Shown here piece by piece: positions 2,334 to 43,740 of a stretch of DNA of 64,000 nt (the stretch's first letter is position 1; the number at the start of each line of letters is the position of its first letter). Below the pieces are notes generated by a model that ran no database searches, had not been told where the DNA came from, and saw nothing but the letters and a program-made list of their open reading frames with translations. This stretch comes from a bacterium. GTDB taxonomy: Bacteria > Patescibacteriota > Saccharimonadia > Saccharimonadales > SZUA-47. The stretch covers positions 234,383 through 298,382 of the forward strand of contig JAUIBF010000001.1 of NCBI GenBank assembly GCA_030428125.1. Reading direction: 5' to 3'. The translations under genes and the position numbers were made by a program.

Positions 2334-3635
2334 ATGCTAGACAAAATTCAGAGGGTTAAGGATAGTGTTCTAGAAAAAACTAGAGCGCGAACTGACAAGG
2401 TTGCTGAACGCTACATTGTGGCTTTAGATGTAGGAACGGAAAACGTGAAAGCTCTGATTGGCAAAATCAACGGAAATAACGTAGATATCATAGGAGTTGG
2501 CAAAGCCCATCAGGGTTTATCAGATATGCAAGCAGGTGCTGTTGCTGATATTGCCGCTGTTACTGCTAACTGCAACGAGGCATTGGCTCAAGCTGAAGAA
2601 CAGGCTGGGGTTAGTGCACGTGCAGTAGTAATTGGAATTGCTGGCGAACTAGTCAAAGGCACAACCATATCTGTTAGGGTTTCCCGGAAAGACGGCAAAA
2701 AACCTCTAGAGGTAGAAGAAGTTGAAAAGATTATTTCGCTTGTCCAAAAAAGAGCTTTCGAGAAAGCACGCAAGCAAATTGCTACCGAATTGGGTGGCAA
2801 AGAAGTCGACGTCCAGTTGGTTAATAGTGCGCTAGTGCGAATGGAGATTGATGGCTATGCCGTCACTAACCCTGTAGGGTTTCAAGGAAAAGAAGTCACA
2901 GTACAGCTTTACACAGCTTTTGCACCGTTGATTCACATCGGTGCACTGGAGCAAGTTGCCACACAACTAGACATGGATTTGCTGGCAGTTGCTGCAGAGC
3001 CTTTCGCGGTTGCCAGATCAGTTGTCGGTGATGACACGGAATCGACCTTTAGCGCTGTTTTAATGGATGTAGGTGGTGGGACTACGGATATCGCAGTCTT
3101 AAATGAGGGTGGAGTCCAAGGGACAAAGATGTTTGGCATTGGTGGACGTGCATTTACTAGGTCGGTTGAGCGTGAGCTGGACATTTCATTCGACGAAGCA
3201 GAGACAATGAAATTAGCGTTAGGAAAGGGTGCATTATCTGAGTCTAAGCGAAAGACTACCGAAAAAGCCCTGGGTAAAACAGTAAAAGTTTGGCGTTCAG
3301 GTGTCGAACTTGCTCTAGAAGAGTTTCAGAATCTAGATCACCTGCCTCATAACATTCTACTTTGTGGTGGTGGTGCTTCCCTGCAACTGCTGATCGATGA
3401 GCTAGAACAGTCTAGCTGGTATAGAAGTTTGCCGTTTGCAAAAAAACCAACGGTTAAATATATTTCACCAGAAACAGTCTCTGGGATAATTGATACAACT
3501 GAAAATCTCGATGATCACACATTCATAACTGCCATGGGACTTTTAAGAGTAGGAATTGATACAATAGGACAGACAGATGCCGATGATGACTCAGTAAGCA
3601 TCGGCGACAGAATAAACAGAATTTTAAGAATATAA
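2334..3635 (+). CDS. ftsA: actin/HSP70-fold ATPase, FtsA-like cell division protein
   Basis: Phosphate-binding motifs ALDVGTENVKALIG and VLMDVGGGTTDIAVL, plus ILLCGGGASL. Overall FtsA-like motif order. TGaTACAAT box at 2316-2324. Confidence 0.6.
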   Translation: MLDKIQRVKDSVLEKTRARTDKVAERYIVALDVGTENVKALIGKINGNNVDIIGVGKAHQGLSDMQAGAVADIAAVTANCNEALAQAEEQAGVSARAVVIGIAGELVKGTTISVRVSRKDGKKPLEVEEVEKIISLVQKRAFEKARKQIATELGGKEVDVQLVNSALVRMEIDGYAVTNPVGFQGKEVTVQLYTAFAPLIHIGALEQVATQLDMDLLAVAAEPFAVARSVVGDDTESTFSAVLMDVGGGTTDIAVLNEGGVQGTKMFGIGGRAFTRSVERELDISFDEAETMKLALGKGALSESKRKTTEKALGKTVKVWRSGVELALEEFQNLDHLPHNILLCGGGASLQLLIDELEQSSWYRSLPFAKKPTVKYISPETVSGIIDTTENLDDHTFITAMGLLRVGIDTIGQTDADDDSVSIGDRINRILRI

Positions 3636-3638
3636 ATT

Positions 3639-5285
3639 ATGGCAAACAGCACAAAAGATACAGTTTATATAGATGTCGAAGATGAAATAACTGCTGTAAT
3701 TGATAAAGTCGTAAATGCCAAGCACAAAATTGTAGCGTTAGTTTTACCTAAACGAGCTACAGTGTTCCAAAGTCCGGTTAACATGAAGTTGCTCCAAAAA
3801 GCAGCAAAATCTGCCAAGAAAAGTTTGGTTTTGATTACTTCCGATAAAGGGATTCTAGCGATCGCAGCTGTAAGTGGTGTTCATGTTGCTAAATCTCTAA
3901 CCACCAAACCTGAAATTCCCAAGATTGAACAACCAGAGGAAAACATCGAAGAGAGTGTAGACTTAACCGGAGCAGCTATTGCTGGCGCAGCCGGAGCAGC
4001 AGCTGTTGCCGCAAGTACAGATGATAAAGATGAGGCTATCGAGCTAGATAATACTGACGAAAGAGCTATCACATCTGACGAAAAGCCAAAAAGTGGCAAG
4101 AAAAAACTGATGAAAATACCTGATTTCTCAAGCTTTAGGTTAAAGGTTGGCCTAGGAATTGCTGGAGTAGTGCTTCTCGTAGTTCTGTGGTTTGTGGCTT
4201 TTGTTGTTATGCCTAAGGCTACCGTGACAGTAAATACCGATACTTCAACCACTAGTGTAAATACTCAAGCTATATTCCGAGTAGGTGCAGAAGAAGTCGA
4301 TGTTGAAGAGAACATAATACCGGCTGAGCGAGTACAAGCAGAAAAAATTGATAGCATAAAAGTACCAGCTACCGGCCAAAAAGACATAGGCGAGAAAGCT
4401 ACGGGCACATTGACACTAACCAACTGTATCGACGACGGTGAACAGAAAGTCGTTCCTGCTGGAACAAGATTTACAAAAGACGGACTAACATTTGTAACTG
4501 CTGAGCAGGTAATATTGCCGTTCGCTATCGTTGCAGCCGGTGACTGTATCAGCGCAGATTTCGGAAGAAGCCGGGACGTAGATGCTGTTGCCGAAGAAGC
4601 AGGACCTCAGTACAACATATCCGAAGGTAGCTATAACTCCAGCATAAGTGGCATACAAGCATATGGGTCGGATATGAGTGGTGGAAGCTCTGAGATTGTC
4701 AAAGTAATTTCCGATGAAGATGTGCAAAAAGCCGAACAGCAGCTAAAAGGCACCAGCAAAACAGCTGCACTTAACGAAATGAAGTCACAATTAGAAGAAT
4801 CAGGGAAGACACCGGTCGAAGAAACTCTGGCAGAAGGAACTCCGAAAACAACCGTAGTTCCGGCAGTAGGAAAAGAGGCGGACGAAGTTGAAGTTACCAT
4901 AACTATCACCTATAACTTACAAGGTGTTAACGAAGACGATTTGTCTGCAGTTCTAGATCATGAAATTAATGAAAAGATGGGTGAAGATAAAAAGAACATC
5001 AAAGATAATGGCATAGAGGCAGTTAGATTCCAGGTAAGCGATAACTCTAATGAGGCAGACACTAACGTCACGCTTCAAACAGTTGCAACGCTGGGGCCAG
5101 ACATAGATGAAGCTGCCTTAAGAGAGGAGATTGCTGGAAAAAAACGTGGTGATATCGAAAAGCAAATCGAAGAAATTGATGGAGTTAGATCCGTGAGCGT
5201 AGAGTATTCTCCTGCCTGGGTTACTACAACTCCTAAAAGTGCCGATAAGATAACAATAGTTTTTAACGAACCAGATGAAGAATAA
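3639..5285 (+). CDS. single-pass membrane protein with large beta-rich C-terminal domain, function unknown
   Basis: Cytoplasmic N-domain, Ala/Gly/acidic linker, TM helix (GIAGVVLLVVLWFVAFVVM), then a KATVTV...ATGTLTLTN...VPAGTRFT segment. That segment resembles, from memory, baseplate-J-like annotated proteins of CPR genomes; this was not verified. Confidence 0.6.
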   Translation: MANSTKDTVYIDVEDEITAVIDKVVNAKHKIVALVLPKRATVFQSPVNMKLLQKAAKSAKKSLVLITSDKGILAIAAVSGVHVAKSLTTKPEIPKIEQPEENIEESVDLTGAAIAGAAGAAAVAASTDDKDEAIELDNTDERAITSDEKPKSGKKKLMKIPDFSSFRLKVGLGIAGVVLLVVLWFVAFVVMPKATVTVNTDTSTTSVNTQAIFRVGAEEVDVEENIIPAERVQAEKIDSIKVPATGQKDIGEKATGTLTLTNCIDDGEQKVVPAGTRFTKDGLTFVTAEQVILPFAIVAAGDCISADFGRSRDVDAVAEEAGPQYNISEGSYNSSISGIQAYGSDMSGGSSEIVKVISDEDVQKAEQQLKGTSKTAALNEMKSQLEESGKTPVEETLAEGTPKTTVVPAVGKEADEVEVTITITYNLQGVNEDDLSAVLDHEINEKMGEDKKNIKDNGIEAVRFQVSDNSNEADTNVTLQTVATLGPDIDEAALREEIAGKKRGDIEKQIEEIDGVRSVSVEYSPAWVTTTPKSADKITIVFNEPDEE

Positions 5286-27754: not shown

Positions 27755-29392
27755 GTGAACAAGGTTGCGCATTACTTACAGCAACATCTAGTTGGTGAGG
27801 TATTAACAAGTCCGGATGTATTAAGTTACTTTTCTACGGATGAAAGTATTTTTCAGATACAGCCTATGTTGGTTGTGCATCCTAGATCGGAGAACGATTT
27901 AAGAAAAGCCGTGAGGTTTAGTTGGCAGCTTGCAGAGCGAGGCAGGAAGGTGCCAATAACCATTAAGGGCAAGGGTACTGATCAGTCAGGAGCGAGTTTA
28001 GGTAATGGAATTGTTCTGACAACTCCTGCTCATTTAAACAAGATTATTGAGCTAGATCCTAAATCTGGGGTCGTAAGCGCAGAGTCCGGTACAGTTGTAG
28101 CAAAAATCCAACAAACACTTCATACGCATGGCAGGTTTCTACCATCGGTTGCCAGTTCCGTAGAGACTATGACAATTGGTGGTTCGGTTGCCAATAATGA
28201 CTCAGGCCCAACTGCCTACAAGTATGGCCCCGTCCGTGAATATGTGAGGGGGTTGAGGGTTGTTCTGTCCAATGGAGAATTAATCAGGACAGAAAGACTC
28301 AGTAAAAGAGAGCTGAACAAGAAGCTTGGGCTTGCATCATTTGAGGGCGAGATATATCGGTCTCTGGATAAATTAATTGAGGAAAATCACGACCTAATTG
28401 AATCGTTAAGCGAATTCGGAGATCGAAATAATGCGGGCTATGCGATAAATGATGTGAAGCTCAAAGATGGTTCGTTTGACTTGACTCCACTATTCGTAGG
28501 GAGTCAAGGAACACTTGGTTTGATTAGCGAGGTAACTCTAGAGACAGAACCACATAGCGCGCAAACAGATATTATTGTGGGTCAGTTTTCGGATAGACAA
28601 AGTGCATGGAATGCAGTTAAAAAAATAAATAATATAAAGAATGGTCCTATATCGCTCGAATTCATAGACAGAAGTTTAATTGAGTTCGTAGTTAAGAATA
28701 ACCCAAATCTAGTCAAAAAAACTATAGATAAGACTTCCCCTGCGACAATTTTGTACGCTGAAATAGAGAAGAATACCAACCGAGCTTCTAAGAAAGTACA
28801 AAAGAAAGTACAAAAGATTTTTGAAGAGGCAGGAGCTGAAACGATCCAGGTTGATGAAGATAGTAGGCAGTCTTGGCTAGCACTTAAGGATAGCCCTTCG
28901 ATTTTTCTATCCGGAGACAGTGGTAAAAAGGCCGCAATTCCTATTACAGACGATGCTTATATTCCGGTTGAGCGATGCGCAGAGTTTATTGAAAAATCTG
29001 AAGAAATTCTCGCTGCGACTGGGCAAAAAGCATATGGTTTTTGGGGTCAGGCAGGAAATGGCGTAGTACACGCAGCTCCGTTGTTCGACATTAGTCAGAT
29101 TGGCGAAAAGCAAAAGATGTTCAAGTTGCTGGACTCTTACTATTCGTTAGTAGTGGACTTTAATGGATCTGTTGCAGGTGAGTTCGCAGAAGGAAGACTT
29201 AGAGGCTCGCAGGCAGAGAAGTTATTCTCGCCAGAGCAAATTAACCTCATGAACAGTATCAAATCCATATTTGATCCATTTGGCATTTTAAATCCAGGCG
29301 TGAAAGTTGGCGTTGAAATGGAGATTATAAAATCACAACTTAGAAATTCATACAGCCTAGACCATCAGTATTCTCATTTACCTAGAAATTAG
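27755..29392 (+). CDS. FAD-linked oxidase (GlcD/D-lactate dehydrogenase family)
   Basis: PCMH-type FAD-binding domain (KGKGTDQSG, IGGSVANNDSGP). C-terminal FDPFGILNPG. GTG start with GAGGAA Shine-Dalgarno sequence. Confidence 0.8.
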   Translation: MNKVAHYLQQHLVGEVLTSPDVLSYFSTDESIFQIQPMLVVHPRSENDLRKAVRFSWQLAERGRKVPITIKGKGTDQSGASLGNGIVLTTPAHLNKIIELDPKSGVVSAESGTVVAKIQQTLHTHGRFLPSVASSVETMTIGGSVANNDSGPTAYKYGPVREYVRGLRVVLSNGELIRTERLSKRELNKKLGLASFEGEIYRSLDKLIEENHDLIESLSEFGDRNNAGYAINDVKLKDGSFDLTPLFVGSQGTLGLISEVTLETEPHSAQTDIIVGQFSDRQSAWNAVKKINNIKNGPISLEFIDRSLIEFVVKNNPNLVKKTIDKTSPATILYAEIEKNTNRASKKVQKKVQKIFEEAGAETIQVDEDSRQSWLALKDSPSIFLSGDSGKKAAIPITDDAYIPVERCAEFIEKSEEILAATGQKAYGFWGQAGNGVVHAAPLFDISQIGEKQKMFKLLDSYYSLVVDFNGSVAGEFAEGRLRGSQAEKLFSPEQINLMNSIKSIFDPFGILNPGVKVGVEMEIIKSQLRNSYSLDHQYSHLPRN

Positions 29393-29394
29393 GC

Positions 29395-29577
29395 TGGTGG
29401 AGCTAAGGACTAAGCTTGAAATGCTCGCAAAAAGCTAGAAGCATTTGCTCGGCCAAGCAAGGATTCCGCAAACTGCCACAGGCAGTTTTCGCCTATCGGT
29501 TCAAATCCATTTACTGTAAATCGGGGGTCCCCGCAAAACCTGTTTTGTGGGGAAGAGGAATAATCATGCAAGACCAA
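29395..29577. other. unclassified structured non-coding region with tRNA-Ala/tmRNA-like 3' acceptor fragment
   Basis: On the minus strand, 29395-29405 reads TAGCTCCACCA, identical to the 3' end of tRNA-Ala at 36278-36288. Hairpins at 29419-29446, 29470-29488 and 29528-29553 (11 bp). The ORFs called here overlap tRNA-Leu and are discounted. Confidence 0.4.
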
Positions 29578-29608
29578 ACAAAAAAGACGCCACTTGTTTG
29601 CGTCTTTT
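29578..29608 (-). terminator. rho-independent terminator downstream of tRNA-Leu
   Basis: Stem AAGACGC/GCGTCTT with a 9-nt loop, followed by a T6 run on the minus strand. Confidence 0.7.
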
Positions 29609-29635
29609 ACAGTTTGGTTGGAATGAATTATTCCG

Positions 29636-29722
29636 TGGTGCGCAAGAGAGGACTTGAACCTCCACGGGAGTGATCCCACTACGACCTCAACGTAGCCTGT
29701 CTACCAATTCCAGCACTTGCGC
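29636..29722 (-). tRNA. tRNA-Leu (anticodon GAG), class II with long variable arm, CCA encoded
   Basis: Reverse complement is GCGCAAG-TG-CTGGAATTGGTAGACAG-G-CTACG-TTGAGGT-CGTAG-TGGGATCACTCCCGT-GGAGG-TTCAAGT-CCTCT-CTTGCGC-A-CCA. Confidence 0.9.
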
Positions 29723-29731
29723 TCTTCAAAC

Positions 29732-29757
29732 TAAAAACCCTGCTTCGTTTTGCAGGG
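29732..29757 (-). terminator. rho-independent terminator downstream of tRNA-Val
   Basis: Stem CCCTGC/GCAGGG with an 8-nt loop, followed by a T5 run on the minus strand. Confidence 0.65.
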
Positions 29758-29767
29758 CGATTGTTAA

Positions 29768-29844
29768 TGGTGGGTTGTGAGGGACTTGAACCCCCGACCC
29801 CCTCGGTGTAAACGAGGTGCTCTAGCCAGCTGAGCTAACAACCC
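29768..29844 (-). tRNA. tRNA-Val (anticodon TAC), CCA encoded
   Basis: Reverse complement is GGGTTGT-TA-GCTCAGCTGGCTAGAGC-A-CCTCG-TTTACAC-CGAGG-GGGTC-GGGGG-TTCAAGT-CCCTC-ACAACCC-A-CCA. Confidence 0.92.
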
Positions 29845-29964
29845 ATTAAACTATCCAATTGATTTTACTATCTTTATCGCAATTTCTCAAGTGTTGTAGG
29901 CTGTTATTTTTAAGTAAAATGTATGATTTATTGCTATACTAAAAGCATAAGTAAAGGAGATGGT

Positions 29965-30522
29965 ATGATTTGGATATTACTGATTGTGGCGGGTCTATTT
30001 TTGGTTGCAATTGTTGGAATATATAACGGACTGGTTAAGAGTAAGGTTCGGGTTGACGAAGCTTGGAGTGACATTACTGTTCAGCTGAAGCGACGAGTAG
30101 ACTTGATTCCAAATTTAGTTGAAACGGTCAAAGGTTATGCGAAGCATGAAAAAGGTGTTTTCGAAGAAGTCACAAAAGCACGGGCTGCTGTAGCTGGGGC
30201 AGGTAGTGTTGATGAAACTGCGAAAGCAGATAACATGCTTACTGGTGCTCTAAAGAGTTTATTCGCCGTTGCAGAAGCGTATCCAGATCTAAAAGCAAAT
30301 ACGAACTTCCAGGATTTACAAGCAGAACTAGTCGACACCGAGGACAAAATCCAAGCAGCACGACGTTTTTATAACGCTGCAGTTCGTGAGTTAAATACTA
30401 AATTACAGGTATTTCCAACTGTACTTTTTGGAAGAATGCTAGGCTTTTCACCTAGAGACTTTTTTGAGCTAGAAGAGTCAGAGCAGGCTGCAGCTGAAAA
30501 ACCAGTTGATGTTAAGTTTTAG
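29965..30522 (+). CDS. lemA: LemA family protein
   Basis: AAAGGAGA Shine-Dalgarno sequence before the ATG at 29965. TM anchor, then YNGLVKSKVRVDEAWSDITVQLKRRVDLIPNLVETVKGYAKHE. Confidence 0.88.
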   Translation: MIWILLIVAGLFLVAIVGIYNGLVKSKVRVDEAWSDITVQLKRRVDLIPNLVETVKGYAKHEKGVFEEVTKARAAVAGAGSVDETAKADNMLTGALKSLFAVAEAYPDLKANTNFQDLQAELVDTEDKIQAARRFYNAAVRELNTKLQVFPTVLFGRMLGFSPRDFFELEESEQAAAEKPVDVKF

Positions 30523-30550
30523 GTAGCTTGACTAACCTAGGGCCAGCTTC

Positions 30551-31423
30551 GTGTATTCCGAAATAGAATCAAATAAAAGAAAAACAGTCGGACTTCTTGC
30601 CGTGTTTTTACTAATACTAGGATGTTTGTCTTACTTCATTGGTATTTATTTCGGAGATTTTACGATCACTGTAGGTGCGTTAATCGGATCATTACTATAT
30701 GCTCTGTTTAGCTACTATGGTGCGGCCAAAACAGCACTAAGCTTTAACGGAGCAAGGCAGATTAAAAAACAGGACAACCCGAGGCTGTGGAGGACCGTTG
30801 AGAATTTAGCCATTACAGAAGGCCTGCCTATGCCAAAAATTTACATAGTTGAAGACAATGGCTTGAATGCATTTGCTACTGGTCGGGATCCTAAACATGC
30901 ATCAGTGGCTATCACAACTGGGCTCCTCGATAGCCTAGAAGATTCAGAGCTGGAAGGAGTTATGGCACACGAATTGGGTCACATAAAGAATTATGATATC
31001 AGGGTTAGTATGGTGGTTTTTGGGTTAGTCGTGGCGATATCACTACTTGCTGACGTTTTTCTTAGGATGAGTTTTTTCAGCAATGAAGACGATGATACGC
31101 CTCCGTTTATGATGGCATTTGGAATAATTGCTATGATTTTGGCTCCTATGGTAGCAGCGATGGTTCAGGCTGCAGTGTCGAGAAAGCGAGAATATTTAGC
31201 AGATGCTACGGGCGCGTTAACTACTAGATATCCTGAAGGTCTTGCAAATGCATTGGAAAAGATTAAAGATGGTTCTTCGACAACCAGGCGTCAACATACG
31301 GCATCAGCGCACCTATTCTTTGCTAACCCCATGAAGGGCAAAAGATTAAGTGGAGCATTTAGTACTCATCCACCGATTGATGAACGGATAAAGAGATTAC
31401 GCGAAATGGGCAGAAAGGTTTAA
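30551..31423 (+). CDS. htpX: M48 zinc metalloprotease HtpX
   Basis: HELGHIKNYD zinc motif, four TM helices, C-terminal STHPPIDERI. The LemA-HtpX pairing is common. Confidence 0.9.
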   Translation: MYSEIESNKRKTVGLLAVFLLILGCLSYFIGIYFGDFTITVGALIGSLLYALFSYYGAAKTALSFNGARQIKKQDNPRLWRTVENLAITEGLPMPKIYIVEDNGLNAFATGRDPKHASVAITTGLLDSLEDSELEGVMAHELGHIKNYDIRVSMVVFGLVVAISLLADVFLRMSFFSNEDDDTPPFMMAFGIIAMILAPMVAAMVQAAVSRKREYLADATGALTTRYPEGLANALEKIKDGSSTTRRQHTASAHLFFANPMKGKRLSGAFSTHPPIDERIKRLREMGRKV

Positions 31424-31428
31424 CGAAC

Positions 31429-34945
<3,517 letters not shown>

Positions 34946-35044
34946 GCGTTCGTGATGAAATAGCACTTAGACGGGTGTCTAGGCTCGAGTAAAACAAACA
35001 TCCAAAAACAAAAATACCCGAGCCGGGTGGGCACACCCGACAAC

Positions 35045-35071
35045 AATACCTCTGGCAGCAGGGGTATTTTT
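35045..35071 (+). terminator. rho-independent terminator after rdgB
   Basis: 8-bp stem AATACCTC/GGGGTATT (one G-U pair) with an 8-nt loop, then TTT. Confidence 0.5.
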
Positions 35072-35089
35072 AATATACAGATAAGTATA

Positions 35090-35118
35090 TTGACAAGAAA
35101 GCAAAAGCATGATACAAT
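35090..35118 (+). promoter_or_regulatory. promoter TTGACA-17-TACAAT (with TGn)
   Basis: TTGACA at 35090-35095 and TGATACAAT at 35110-35118. AAGGTGG Shine-Dalgarno sequence and ATG at 35144 follow. Confidence 0.65.
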
Positions 35119-35143
35119 GAAAAGATAAGGTGGTATTTATTTT

Positions 35144-36268
35144 ATGTCAGCGACAGCAGTAGCAATTTTATCGGCAACAAGTGTTTTAGGTGCAGGTTCT
35201 GCTTATGTAGGTCACGAGATGATGCAGGATCATCCTGAAATTAGTGGTAATAACTGTGTAGATATGTCAGGCATTCCACTAGAGGACGCATTTGCCGATC
35301 CGAGTGTTTCTAGCATTCAGCAAGCAATTATGGATAAAGCCGGTATAGAAATCATCGGAGGTGCAGATGGTGATTTTGGTCAGGCTAGCTGTATTGCTTT
35401 TGGTCTCGCTCAAGAAGCTCTTGGAGTTACAGTTGATTACAAATTCGGTCCTGAGTCGGCAGGAGCACTGGGAATTGATCTGAACAATATATTTCCGAAC
35501 AGTGACTTGGCTTCAGATGCTGACGCGGTAGAAGGTACTCAGGTTTCTGTGCCAACAACTGAAGATATCGAGTGTAGGAACATGGATGGCGTGCCTGCAG
35601 AGTCAGGATATACAAATGGCGCAATTCTGCAGATTCAGACAGCTCTTGACTCCCACGGTTACGGTAGAGGTGGAGTAGATGGTAAGTTCTTAGACCTAAC
35701 TTGTGATGAAGTCGTTGCTTTTCAGCGTGCTAATAATCTTACTGTAGACGGTATTGTAGGTCCCGCTACAGCAAGAGCTCTAGGCATAAATTATGAGTCA
35801 CTAGTTTCTGGTAGCATAGCTAGTCAGAAAGAATTTGAGCCAGAAATTGACTGCCCAGCTGCAAGTAGCTGTGACATCGAAGTAAATCTAAATACCCAAA
35901 GACTGCATATCACAGACGGCTCTGGAAATATCATTTGGGATAGACCAGTTCAGAGTGGTAAGCGAGGTTATGAAACCCGAAACATCCGAAGCACTTTAGG
36001 TCATGTCGAGTATGGTGAAGGTGGTAATCCTGAACGGCCCAGCGTTGATTATCCAGAAGCAATACTAGTAAATCCCAGGGGCTTTGGAAATGGTGGACAA
36101 AAGTTTCACGGGTCCTATAGTTTTAATGCTTGGGCAGTAGATAGTCCTGATTCTGGTAGTGCTGGATGTGTCCGTCTAGAGATTGGCGACTCTTATACCT
36201 TTGCCAAAATGCCAATCGGTACCAGTGTCTTGCTTTTTGGAGCAAAGCCCGGAACAACGCAACGATAA
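35144..36268 (+). CDS. L,D-transpeptidase (YkuD) with peptidoglycan-binding repeats
   Basis: PG_binding_1-like repeats (GADGDFGQAS, VDGKFLDLTCDEVVAFQRANNLTVDGIVGPAT). Catalytic HG...SAGCVRL motif near the C-terminus. Confidence 0.85.
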   Translation: MSATAVAILSATSVLGAGSAYVGHEMMQDHPEISGNNCVDMSGIPLEDAFADPSVSSIQQAIMDKAGIEIIGGADGDFGQASCIAFGLAQEALGVTVDYKFGPESAGALGIDLNNIFPNSDLASDADAVEGTQVSVPTTEDIECRNMDGVPAESGYTNGAILQIQTALDSHGYGRGGVDGKFLDLTCDEVVAFQRANNLTVDGIVGPATARALGINYESLVSGSIASQKEFEPEIDCPAASSCDIEVNLNTQRLHITDGSGNIIWDRPVQSGKRGYETRNIRSTLGHVEYGEGGNPERPSVDYPEAILVNPRGFGNGGQKFHGSYSFNAWAVDSPDSGSAGCVRLEIGDSYTFAKMPIGTSVLLFGAKPGTTQR

Positions 36269-36277
36269 GCATTTTTC

Positions 36278-36354
36278 TGGTGGAGCTACGGGGACTCAAA
36301 CCCCGGACCTCTTGTATGCCATACAAGCGCTCTAATCAACTGAGCTATAGCCCC
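36278..36354 (-). tRNA. tRNA-Ala (anticodon GGC), CCA encoded, atypical D- and T-loops
   Basis: Reverse complement is GGGGCTA-TA-GCTC-AGTTGATTA-GAGC-G-CTTGT-ATGGCAT-ACAAG-AGGTC-CGGGG-TTTGAGT-CCCCG-TAGCTCC-A-CCA. G3:U70 is present. Confidence 0.88.
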
Positions 36355-43453: not shown

Positions 43454-43740
43454 ATGCCTTTTGGGGTCTGTAGAGCATATCCAACAGAAACCTTTTTTCC
43501 TTCAGATGGTGTCGGTGTCGATAATGCAATAAAAATATGTCGGGGGGTGGTGGTGGTGGAGTTATAGATGCTTGTTTGGAGTATGCTTTATCCGAAAGAA
43601 TTGAACATGGAGTATGGGGTGGAGAATCAGAAAGAGGAAGAAGACGTATTTTACGTAATCGTCGAGCTACTGCAAACCAAGCGATGGTTAGTACTGAGGT
43701 GTCAGTTAGTAAAGTACCACCGGATACAGCTAATTTTTAG
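43454..43740 (+). pseudogene. WhiB-like (Wbl) gene with a reading-frame break in a G6(TGG)4 tract
   Basis: Frame 2 reads (W)MPFGVCRAYPTETFFPSDGVGVDNAIKIC. Frame 1, from 43537, reads ...VIDACLEYALSERIEHGVWGGESERGRRRILRNRR. Together these give the Wbl pattern C-x22-C...C plus GVWGG and a basic tail. The switch lies at 43542-43559. Confidence 0.65.

Follow-up and report, generated by a model that had tools for sequence, protein, structure and literature searches.

A conserved folded element with tRNA-derived ends downstream of tRNA genes in Saccharibacteria, at a site with a tmRNA-like 3' end

The 64,000-nt stretch of contig JAUIBF010000001.1 analysed here (called 'the window') contains, between a flavin adenine dinucleotide (FAD)-binding oxidase gene and a pair of transfer RNA (tRNA) genes, an interval (positions 29395-29577) which a preliminary description had presented as a single structured non-coding region of about 180 nt with a 3' end of the tRNA-Ala or transfer-messenger RNA (tmRNA) type. 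The interval is not a single unit, being composed of two modules joined on the minus strand: a copy of a conserved, folded family of approximately 110-120 nt, called X (29395-29509), and part of a separate trailer module, called Y. That the window copy is a member of the X family and that the region is not a tmRNA is, taken together, almost certain. Copies of X were linked to and co-oriented with tRNA genes, and their ends were derived from tRNA. Our preferred reading, to which we give an even chance, is that X would act as an RNA, namely a tRNA-linked small RNA. The family appears to be undescribed and is absent from Rfam.

Eighty Saccharibacteria loci were fetched around homologues of the FAD-oxidase gene, all of which came from Candidatus Saccharibacteria (TM7, a lineage of the candidate phyla radiation, CPR); individual loci are designated below by L numbers. 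Searches by blastn and nhmmer with positions 29393-29640 gave significant matches to 29395-29511 in many of the 80 loci. Iterated profiles produced 22 copies of X, and a pattern scan of metagenome contigs added 33 loci, for a total of 57 profile hits. A profile hidden Markov model (HMM) made from the 56 copies outside the window had a single match in the 64 kb, at 29405-29508 on the minus strand (E=1.9e-24), and covariance model R1 ranked the window copy (94 bits) 16th among 44 strong copies. The core of X was approximately 80-90% identical between genomes with FAD-oxidase proteins at only 48-55% identity. Beyond real tRNAs, neither Rfam nor the tmRNA and tRNA detectors gave a family over X in the window or in 12 related loci, the microRNA-like matches in those loci resulting from a long palindrome of tRNA end, terminator and 5' arm. 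A full-text literature search did not find a description of such an element.

Single-sequence folding was no better than chance (z = -1.86 and -1.27 for the minus and plus strands of 29393-29580, and -1.23 for X by itself), and the evidence for structure came solely from the comparison of the 44 homologous copies. Here, standard pairs occupied 90.4% of cells, relative to 73.7% in column shuffles and 29-42% with slid partners, while 139 cells were changed on both sides (35 in shuffles) and double-sided changes occurred in 14 of 20 pairs; these and the G·U counts below were taken from interrelated copies, with alignment A4 having been made by the covariance model. For hairpin C, eight of nine pairs showed changes on both sides and 97.7% of cells were paired, a separate count on 43 copies giving 373 Watson-Crick, 10 G·T and 2 A·C pairs. 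The closing helix covaried with the tail (C-G with CAAGTCC, U-A with CAAATCC in Arg, Met and Ser tails, and U·G in 12 copies). The junctions were invariant while the stems varied, and tandem G·A alternated with Watson-Crick pairs. On the tRNA-sense strand, G·U outnumbered A·C by 39:2 in all modelled helices and by 17:2 when the closing helix was left out (p ~7e-4), and in 34 of 41 copies this strand had the more stable fold of the two. As judged by sequence comparison, the fold was thus shown to be conserved through compensating changes and to be biased to the tRNA-sense strand.

The anatomy of X was derived from alignments A2 and A4 and is given 5' to 3' on the tRNA-sense strand (window coordinates in Table 1). 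The 5' arm of the family, (A)GGAYTTGAACC, corresponds exactly, in reverse complement, to the T-loop and T-stem of a tRNA, GGTTCARGTCC(T). It is followed by the small hairpin B and by hairpin C, which in the family has CGA before it, 8-11 bp, an NGY triloop and GAG after it. The next junction reads GTTTTCC-TTGCTTGGCCG in the family versus GGAATCC-TTGCTTGGCCG in the window copy, TTGCTTGGCCG being single-stranded and at least 90% conserved across the family. Hairpin E has a base with 56 G·A cells and an inner stem that is swapped, with compensating changes, between relatives (for example, L107 versus L110). After GCA and approximately 7 nt comes the 3' arm, composed of CAAGTCC and then the T-stem 3' strand, the acceptor 3' strand, the discriminator base and the CCA of a tRNA. 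The two arms form a closing helix of 6 to 9 bp, which leaves approximately 13 nt of acceptor strand and the CCA unpaired, and a terminator follows most tails. The window copy carries every one of these parts: the 5' arm, B, C, TTGCTTGGCCG, E on CGAG/CGAG and the tail from T-loop to CCA. Of four hairpins in the preliminary description, those at 29470-29488 and 29528-29553 exist, the second lying in Y, while that at 29419-29446 was one possible pairing; likewise, the structure itself was borne out by comparison of the 44 copies, but not as a single region of 180 nt.

Table 1. Positions in the window of element X, its parts and the surrounding features
Feature	Position	Strand	Basis or remark
Element X, whole copy (family type i)	29395..29509	-	covariance model R1 94 bits, E ~1e-21; profile HMM E=1.9e-24
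5' arm GGATTTGAACC	29498..29508	-	reverse complement of T-loop/T-stem (GGTTCAAATCC); pairs with 3' arm in family
Small hairpin B, CC-GATA-GG	29492..29499	-	varies yet stays paired: ACC/GGT, ACCC/GGGT, ATC/GGT, ACT/AGT
Hairpin C, CG-AAAACTGCC-TGT-GGCAGTTT-GCG	29467..29491	-	hairpin 29470-29488 of the preliminary description
Conserved single-stranded junction GAATCCTTGCTTGGCC	29451..29466	-	conservation line of A4
Variable hairpin E on CGAG...CGAG (tandem G·A)	29423..29451	-	holds tag-like frame; helix 4 of covariation analysis
3' arm and tail TTCAAGCTTAGTCCTTAGCTCCACCA	29395..29418	-	T-loop-derived strand, ~5-nt interruption, tRNA-Ala-type acceptor 3' strand, CCA
Trailer module Y	29512..29635	-	begins directly after CCA of tRNA-Leu(GAG); nhmmer profile
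Small hairpin and AACCA of Y	29615-29635	-	5'-most part of Y
Bidirectional terminator-like hairpin in Y, AAAAGACGC...GCGTCTTTTTT	29580..29608	both	read from sequence; belongs to conserved Y
GC hairpin of Y, CCCCACAAAAC-AG-GTTTTGCGGGG	29529..29552	-	hairpin 29528-29553 of the preliminary description
tRNA-Leu(GAG)	29636..29722	-	tRNA preceding X; 3' end GTTCAAGTCCTCTCTTGCGCACCA; ARAGORN; Rfam tRNA model 49.4 bits
tRNA-Val(TAC)	29768..29844	-	first of minus-strand tRNA pair; ARAGORN; Rfam tRNA model 66.7 bits
FAD-binding oxidase gene	27755..29392	+	PF01565, PF02913; converges on X; stop codon 2 nt from CCA

A co-oriented tRNA gene was present within 250 nt upstream in 34 of the 38 strong copies with enough upstream sequence, and an antiparallel one in none. 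The upstream tRNAs were Leu (CAG, GAG, TAA, TAG), Trp, Arg, Ser (GCT, GGA), Met and Pro. X mostly lay 41-57 nt downstream of the tRNA, just beyond its terminator; in typical copies only this terminator and approximately 100 nt of X stood between the tRNA end and its repeat, and in most copies the repeat was approximately 150 nt from its tRNA. The 12-nt tail before CCA was identical to that of the upstream tRNA in 19 of 34 copies and had at most two mismatches in 27, tRNA-Ala being absent from the upstream tRNAs matched by a tail. In a count independent of the X model, made in the first 85 loci, the 3' end of a tRNA recurred within 450 nt downstream for Leu(CAG) (9/48), Leu(GAG) (12/60), Val (10/48), Phe (4/21) and Gly (1/13), or for approximately 19% of these genes overall.

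These recurrences revealed further body types (ii and iii), arranged in the same way. The 5' arm in L070 and L027 repeats the whole tRNA end in inverted orientation, for example as GCGGATGAGAGGAGTTGAACCTC, with 14 bp of pairing to CTCCTCTCATCCGC-ACC; it changes to GCGGACG/CGTCCGC beside the other tRNA-Leu. Type ii has the form GGTGAGAA..GCCAGTGGC..TTCGCAAGG..GAAAACTTGTTTTC..GAAGTTTCGGGG and shares its 5' half with type i, and type iii has a body of approximately 190 nt and arms of at least 14 bp that mimic the full acceptor and T-stem. Other body types were seen in the slot after a tRNA in L070 (2580-2840 and 5975-6240), L027 (3600-3790), L045, L060, L024 (5832-5964), L002 (3240-3361), L003 (5688-5810), L133 (4449-4587) and L135 (4185-4323).

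The tmRNA-like appearance of the window copy could in principle mark a decayed, rearranged or minimal ssrA gene. The minus-strand strings that had suggested this are present as quoted: the 3' end ...TAGCTCCACCA of tRNA-Ala type, an upstream GGGG, the string GGATTTGAACC and a short frame, ANASSFLRAFQA, which ends in QA and a stop codon. The resemblance is superficial, however. ARAGORN found four tRNAs and no tmRNA, standard or permuted, in the 64 kb, and at gathering thresholds Rfam 15 found only tRNAs. With permissive settings, the best non-tRNA Rfam matches in 29300-29700 had E values of approximately 4 or above and were irrelevant, the best over X itself (E=8.8) being to an unrelated small RNA family. 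Neither ARAGORN nor the Rfam tRNA model RF00005 placed a cloverleaf over any part of 29395-29577, where tRNA resemblance was limited to the last ~17 nt. As previously remarked, there is no T-arm, neither T-stem nor T-loop preceding the tail, and GGGGACC, here placed in Y, can pair with TAGCTCC at 4 of 7 positions only; a closing acceptor stem is likewise missing. Moreover, GGGGACCCCC, taken for a tmRNA-like 5' end, belongs to Y, which recurs without X or in another order, and GGATTTGAACC, taken for a tmRNA 5' motif, is a tRNA T-loop in reverse complement, a feature of all family members. The tails of the homologues are mostly of Leu, Arg, Met, Ser, Trp and Pro type and lack the G3·U70 required for alanine charging, and the tag-like frame lies in hairpin E, the most variable in length and sequence across the 44 copies. 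It was not conserved in homologues and was rejected as coding. An ssrA origin is accordingly exceedingly improbable.

The CCA end was also considered as an attachment-site (att) remnant, that is, an attR-type repeat of an island integrated in tRNA-Ala(GGC) (36278-36354) and spanning 29395-36277. The 11-mer TAGCTCCACCA does occur exactly twice in the window, in the same orientation, at 29395-29405 and at the end of tRNA-Ala (36278-36288), 6.9 kb apart, X lying downstream of the tRNA; weaker similarity continues for approximately six more nucleotides (AGTCC). A third site, with one mismatch, is found at 43554 inside a CCACCACC run, and shuffled sequences contained on average 0.88 matches with up to one mismatch. 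The earlier suggestion was right in that the CCA end was copied from the 3' end of a tRNA, but in no other respect. The interval contains LemA, an M48 peptidase, a hypothetical protein, NAD-dependent DNA ligase (LigA), Ham1, an L,D-transpeptidase, tRNA-Val and tRNA-Leu, and no integrase. With core genes and no integrase between X and tRNA-Ala, the interval is not an island bounded by tRNA-Ala repeats. In relatives, too, the tRNA cluster that comes after the FAD-oxidase gene is immediately followed by LemA and M48, the repeat itself is what X-family members normally carry as their 3' module, and the TAGCTCCACCA end is found, in the same neighbourhood of relative L003, on an unrelated element (Z, described below). 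An integrated island is, on these grounds, very unlikely.

An 'unrelated small RNA', the last of the earlier suggestions, came closest to the outcome, except that the element is linked to tRNA, belongs to a large family and has tRNA-derived ends. If X acts as an RNA, it would be transcribed in the direction of the tRNA, its transcripts either reading through the tRNA terminator or starting at a weak promoter that belongs to X, and would mature to a small RNA with a 3' end set and protected by the borrowed tRNA-type tail; copies would spread between tRNA loci by recombination in the shared T-arm sequence. This reading is based on the contrast of invariant junctions and varying stems, on the G·U bias, on the terminators behind the tails and on a divergence slower than that of the flank (4.5% for X relative to 10% for the flank in one orthologous pair, L014 and L116). 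Element Z, which likewise ends in a hairpin, ACCA and a terminator, was counted as transcription context.

Several observations weigh against an RNA function. For every copy of X, transcription is something we infer from sequence; a convincing conserved promoter upstream of X was not found, and the terminator of the tRNA intervenes. X is patchily present at orthologous tRNA loci, with different body types filling the same slot depending on lineage, and some copies are decaying (L081-83, L099, L111) while others are tandem, nested or chimeric, a pattern typical of selfish DNA. The stems are near-perfect Watson-Crick helices (approximately 3% G·U in hairpin C), which also fits correction of a DNA palindrome, and the covariation and G·U counts carry the limits given with them above. 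The duplicated tRNA end may take in the terminator and a few bases past its T-run (L072, L024), so that the duplication itself arose at the DNA level. Lastly, the window copy has neither a clean closing helix nor a terminator.

Four other candidates were tried and rejected. A class-II tRNA-like gene on the opposite strand would lack T-stem, anticodon arm and (in type i) a closing acceptor stem, and the G·U bias favours the tRNA-sense strand. A group I-like T-loop intron with an internal guide, prompted by the ability of the 5' arm to pair with both exon ends, was dropped because X is far too small, no copy lies inside an intact tRNA and the chimeras have no 3' exon. Small self-cleaving ribozymes (hammerhead, twister and others) were rejected for want of a core motif or Rfam match, and a retron, diversity-generating retroelement or bridge RNA because there is no adjacent reverse transcriptase or recombinase and the guide-like segments pair with each other.

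Many of the same features would be expected if X were selfish, non-autonomous DNA resembling a miniature inverted-repeat transposable element (MITE) or an attC site, its folded single strand being the substrate of a recombinase supplied in trans. Such an element would target, or recombine with, the T-loop region of tRNA genes and leave a duplicated tRNA 3' end, its structure being kept for propagation and not for any service of an RNA to the cell. We consider this possible, if on the whole doubtful. Besides the patchy distribution and the replacement of body types i, ii and iii by one another after orthologous tRNAs, it would account for loci with several tandem or nested copies (L011, L014, L028, L118), for a truncated second copy 1.4 kb from the first in L111, and for permuted, abutting arms (CAAGTCC directly followed by AGATTTGAACC) upstream of tRNA-Leu in L014, L116 and L011, with similar junctions in L056 and L063 and a short spacer in L030 and L060. 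It is also consistent with chimeras of a tRNA 5' fragment and an X body (L014, L116, L011, L001), with terminal inverted repeats of at least 14 bp in type iii, with tails unlike the neighbouring tRNA in L097 and the window, with the DNA-level duplication in L072, and with tRNA order and orientation flipping between close relatives at this locus. A strand-biased fold with variable sequence and conserved structure is, furthermore, known from integron attC sites. On the other hand, a recombinase or transposase gene was not consistently found nearby, the neighbours in the window being housekeeping genes, and the arms follow the adjacent tRNA, which is inexplicable by a transposase with a fixed binding site. 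The identity of the X core between genomes with such diverged FAD-oxidases, with its compensated stems, points to long-term purifying selection rather than recent bursts. CTTGAAC and GTTCAAG, as read from the sequence, each depart at two positions from the integron R''/R' consensus (RYYYAAC / GTTRRRY). Two pattern scans of viral contigs in IMG/VR gave chance matches only, and the covariance model found no X in the matched contigs; a phage origin of X was rejected on this ground.

The abutting arms, seen upstream of many tRNA-Leu genes, have the form ..CCAAGTCC followed by (A)GGACTTGAACC, also written CAAGTCC followed by AGGACTTGAACC; sites include L011 (~3325-3350 and 3590-3612), L014 (3366-3385) and L116 (~4925-4945). 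At most such loci a -10-like box (TATAAT or a close variant) comes next, 9-11 nt before the 5' end of the tRNA, and the arrangement looks like a circular-permutation or tandem junction overlapping a tRNA promoter. In the chimeras (L014 3221-3366; L116 ~4790-4933; L011 3363-3600; L001 4283-4440), a fragment of tRNA-Leu with acceptor, D-arm and anticodon arm is joined to an X body, and the intact same tRNA follows approximately 20 nt on; the anticodon loop of the L014 chimera is enlarged to 9 nt.

The window copy itself departs from the typical arrangement. It lies 127 nt from tRNA-Leu(GAG) rather than the typical ~50 nt, module Y being the extra sequence. Its 3' arm is broken (TTCAAG-CTTAG-TCC, with CTTAG present twice), its 5' arm has an alternative pairing with the internal GGAATCC, and no terminator follows the tail. 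This tail, TTAGCTCCACCA, corresponds to a tRNA-Ala acceptor 3' strand, falls 2 nt short of a genuine tRNA end and departs from the neighbouring tRNA-Leu at 6 of 12 positions. The invariant bases of the junctions have all been retained, and hairpin C remains perfect. The window copy is probably a relocated, partly degenerate member of the family.

In relatives, the corresponding slot was variously occupied. With FAD-oxidase identity in parentheses, L135 (69%) has a type-ii X with a proper Leu tail; in L133 (71%) the tRNA pair is reversed both in order and in orientation, and tRNA-Val is followed by a type-ii X; in L003 (67%) the unrelated element Z stands before a type-ii X; L081-83 (82%) have a clearly decayed X and two inserted genes; and in L084 (86%) tRNA-Leu, on the plus strand, directly follows the oxidase gene, leaving no room for X on that side. 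The inserted genes (DUF4357/HNH and DUF6953) lie between the FAD-oxidase gene and the decayed X (L081 4196-5438, and likewise in L082 and L083), and slightly further on is a gene similar to bAvd / 23S_rRNA_IVP, hinting at a diversity-generating retroelement. The order and orientation of tRNA-Leu(GAG) and tRNA-Val flip repeatedly among relatives with 69-86% protein identity (window 29636-29844 compared with L084, L133, L135, L081 and many of L001-L080), and this rearrangement beside the FAD-oxidase gene, unusually fast for a tRNA cluster, may be driven by the inverted tRNA-end repeats.

The window copy, and perhaps many others, might be a functionless by-product of local palindrome formation and unequal recombination at tRNA terminators, in which a duplicated tRNA 3' end, joined to a repeat, is decaying. 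We regard this as rather unlikely. The interrupted closing helix, the tail short of 2 nt, the missing terminator and the unusual distance from the tRNA would all agree with it, as would the clear decay of X in the closest relatives that carry it here (L081-83), the lack of room for it in L084, and the persistence of a degenerate inverted T-arm after the terminator in L040, which has no X. The window body nevertheless scored among the upper half of the 44 copies, with junction bases and hairpin C preserved as described, and covariation and strand bias across the family cannot arise without selection on structure.

Two further observations concern tRNA-type ends in this neighbourhood. Element Z (GCGGGTCAGCCTTTGGCTGGCAAAC...) was found in L003 (5879-5977, minus strand) and L064 (3798-3898, plus strand), ends in a short hairpin, ACCA and a terminator, and gave nothing in Rfam; its end in L003 is TAGCTCCACCA, the same 11-mer as in the window. 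The combination of hairpin, ACCA and terminator may be a general mode of 3'-end formation in these genomes. In L040 (4823-4915, compared with L100 245-335), the degenerate inverted T-arm after the tRNA-Leu terminator reads GAGGACGAATC, and the palindrome of tRNA end, terminator and inverted tRNA end may be older or more widespread than the X body.

On the minus strand of the window, tRNA-Val(TAC) is followed by a terminator-like hairpin, then by tRNA-Leu(GAG) and approximately 240 nt of non-coding sequence, on which the FAD-oxidase gene converges. The small hairpin and AACCA of module Y are followed by the terminator, a TGGTCTTGCA stretch, a pyrimidine run and the GC hairpin; a consensus terminator scan missed the hairpin at 29580-29608, the loop being longer than 8 nt. 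By nhmmer profile, Y recurs after tRNA-Pro in L113, with X then following, and stands after an X tail in L119 and L013, the counterparts of its GC hairpin in L113 and L119 being perfect. The copies of Y (window 29512-29635, minus; L113 4718-4828, minus; L119 2101-2211, plus; L013 3466-3526, minus) start right behind an ACCA end, either of a tRNA or of an X tail, and have the consensus CG(G/TCAG)AAT..TTCC-AACCA, bidirectional terminator, TGGTCT.GCA, pyrimidine run and GC hairpin. The pyrimidine run looks like an anti-Shine-Dalgarno sequence (TTCCTCCTTTCCCC in L119). A plus-strand ATG in Y has a strong ribosome-binding site, GGGGAAGAGGAA, before it and opens a 35-codon frame running antisense into tRNA-Leu; this small open reading frame (~29566-29673) was rejected as coding, the frame being lost in L113 and L119.

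We tentatively suggest that X and types ii and iii constitute an unrecognised class of structured nucleic acid that mimics tRNA ends, widespread in Saccharibacteria and possibly in other CPR bacteria. Its members could be small RNAs in which a conserved scaffold presents a single-stranded acceptor/CCA tail to tRNA 3'-end enzymes, serving these as decoy, sensor or processing cofactor, or they could be miniature elements active as a folded single strand, recombining with matching tRNA T-loops and reshuffling tRNA loci. The genomes of Saccharibacteria are very small, yet approximately one-fifth of the tRNA genes counted in the first 85 loci precede such elements, so that these must either benefit the cell or be parasites that have been unusually successful at tRNA loci. 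As an RNA, X would represent a new family of strongly covarying structure whose tail is borrowed from tRNA; as mobile DNA, it may explain the fast change of tRNA order and orientation between related genomes at this locus. In either case, elements of this kind resemble three features sought in annotation, namely the end of a tmRNA, a partial tRNA and the att repeats taken as a sign of genomic islands, and would lead to false annotation unless recognised.

Among known systems, tmRNA (two-piece permuted forms included) has in common with X the pairing of 5' and 3' ends around a large structured insert and, for the window copy only, the ...GCTCCACCA 3' end. X differs in having no T-arm, G3·U70 acceptor stem, conserved tag frame or pseudoknots, in its mostly non-alanine tails and in its length (~115 nt relative to 250-400 nt). 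The attL/attR sites at tRNA 3' halves similarly show a direct repeat from T-loop to 3' end downstream of an intact tRNA, sometimes extending into the flank. In X, by contrast, only ~150 nt separate the repeats, there is no integrase or cargo, the conserved and compensated fold starts with an inverted T-arm, and in the window the genes between tRNA-Ala and the repeat are core genes. Like attC sites and MITEs, X is short, has no open reading frame, carries terminal inverted repeats and occurs in many copies with a patchy distribution, and it shares with attC a variable sequence with a conserved fold biased to one strand. Its terminal repeats, however, are inverted arms of 7 to at least 14 bp which copy the adjacent tRNA rather than a fixed recognition sequence, and the duplication consists of 20-60 nt of tRNA end and not of a short target site. 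A single X copy was present in the 64-kb window. The analysis revealed neither an autonomous partner nor an integron integrase or transposase, and there was no integrase in the window neighbourhood. The closest known precedent is rtT RNA, from the repeats of the Escherichia coli tyrT operon (RF00391). X has no similarity to it in sequence or structure and no match to RF00391, and is distinguished by an inverted T-loop 5' arm that closes the fold, a three-hairpin body with several body types, linkage to at least 13 tRNA species (by anticodon) and the lack of 178-nt tandem repeats. Both are nevertheless non-coding, lie downstream of a tRNA gene in the same orientation, and end in a copy of the 3' nucleotides of a tRNA, CCA included, an end that could be defined by the tRNA 3'-end machinery.

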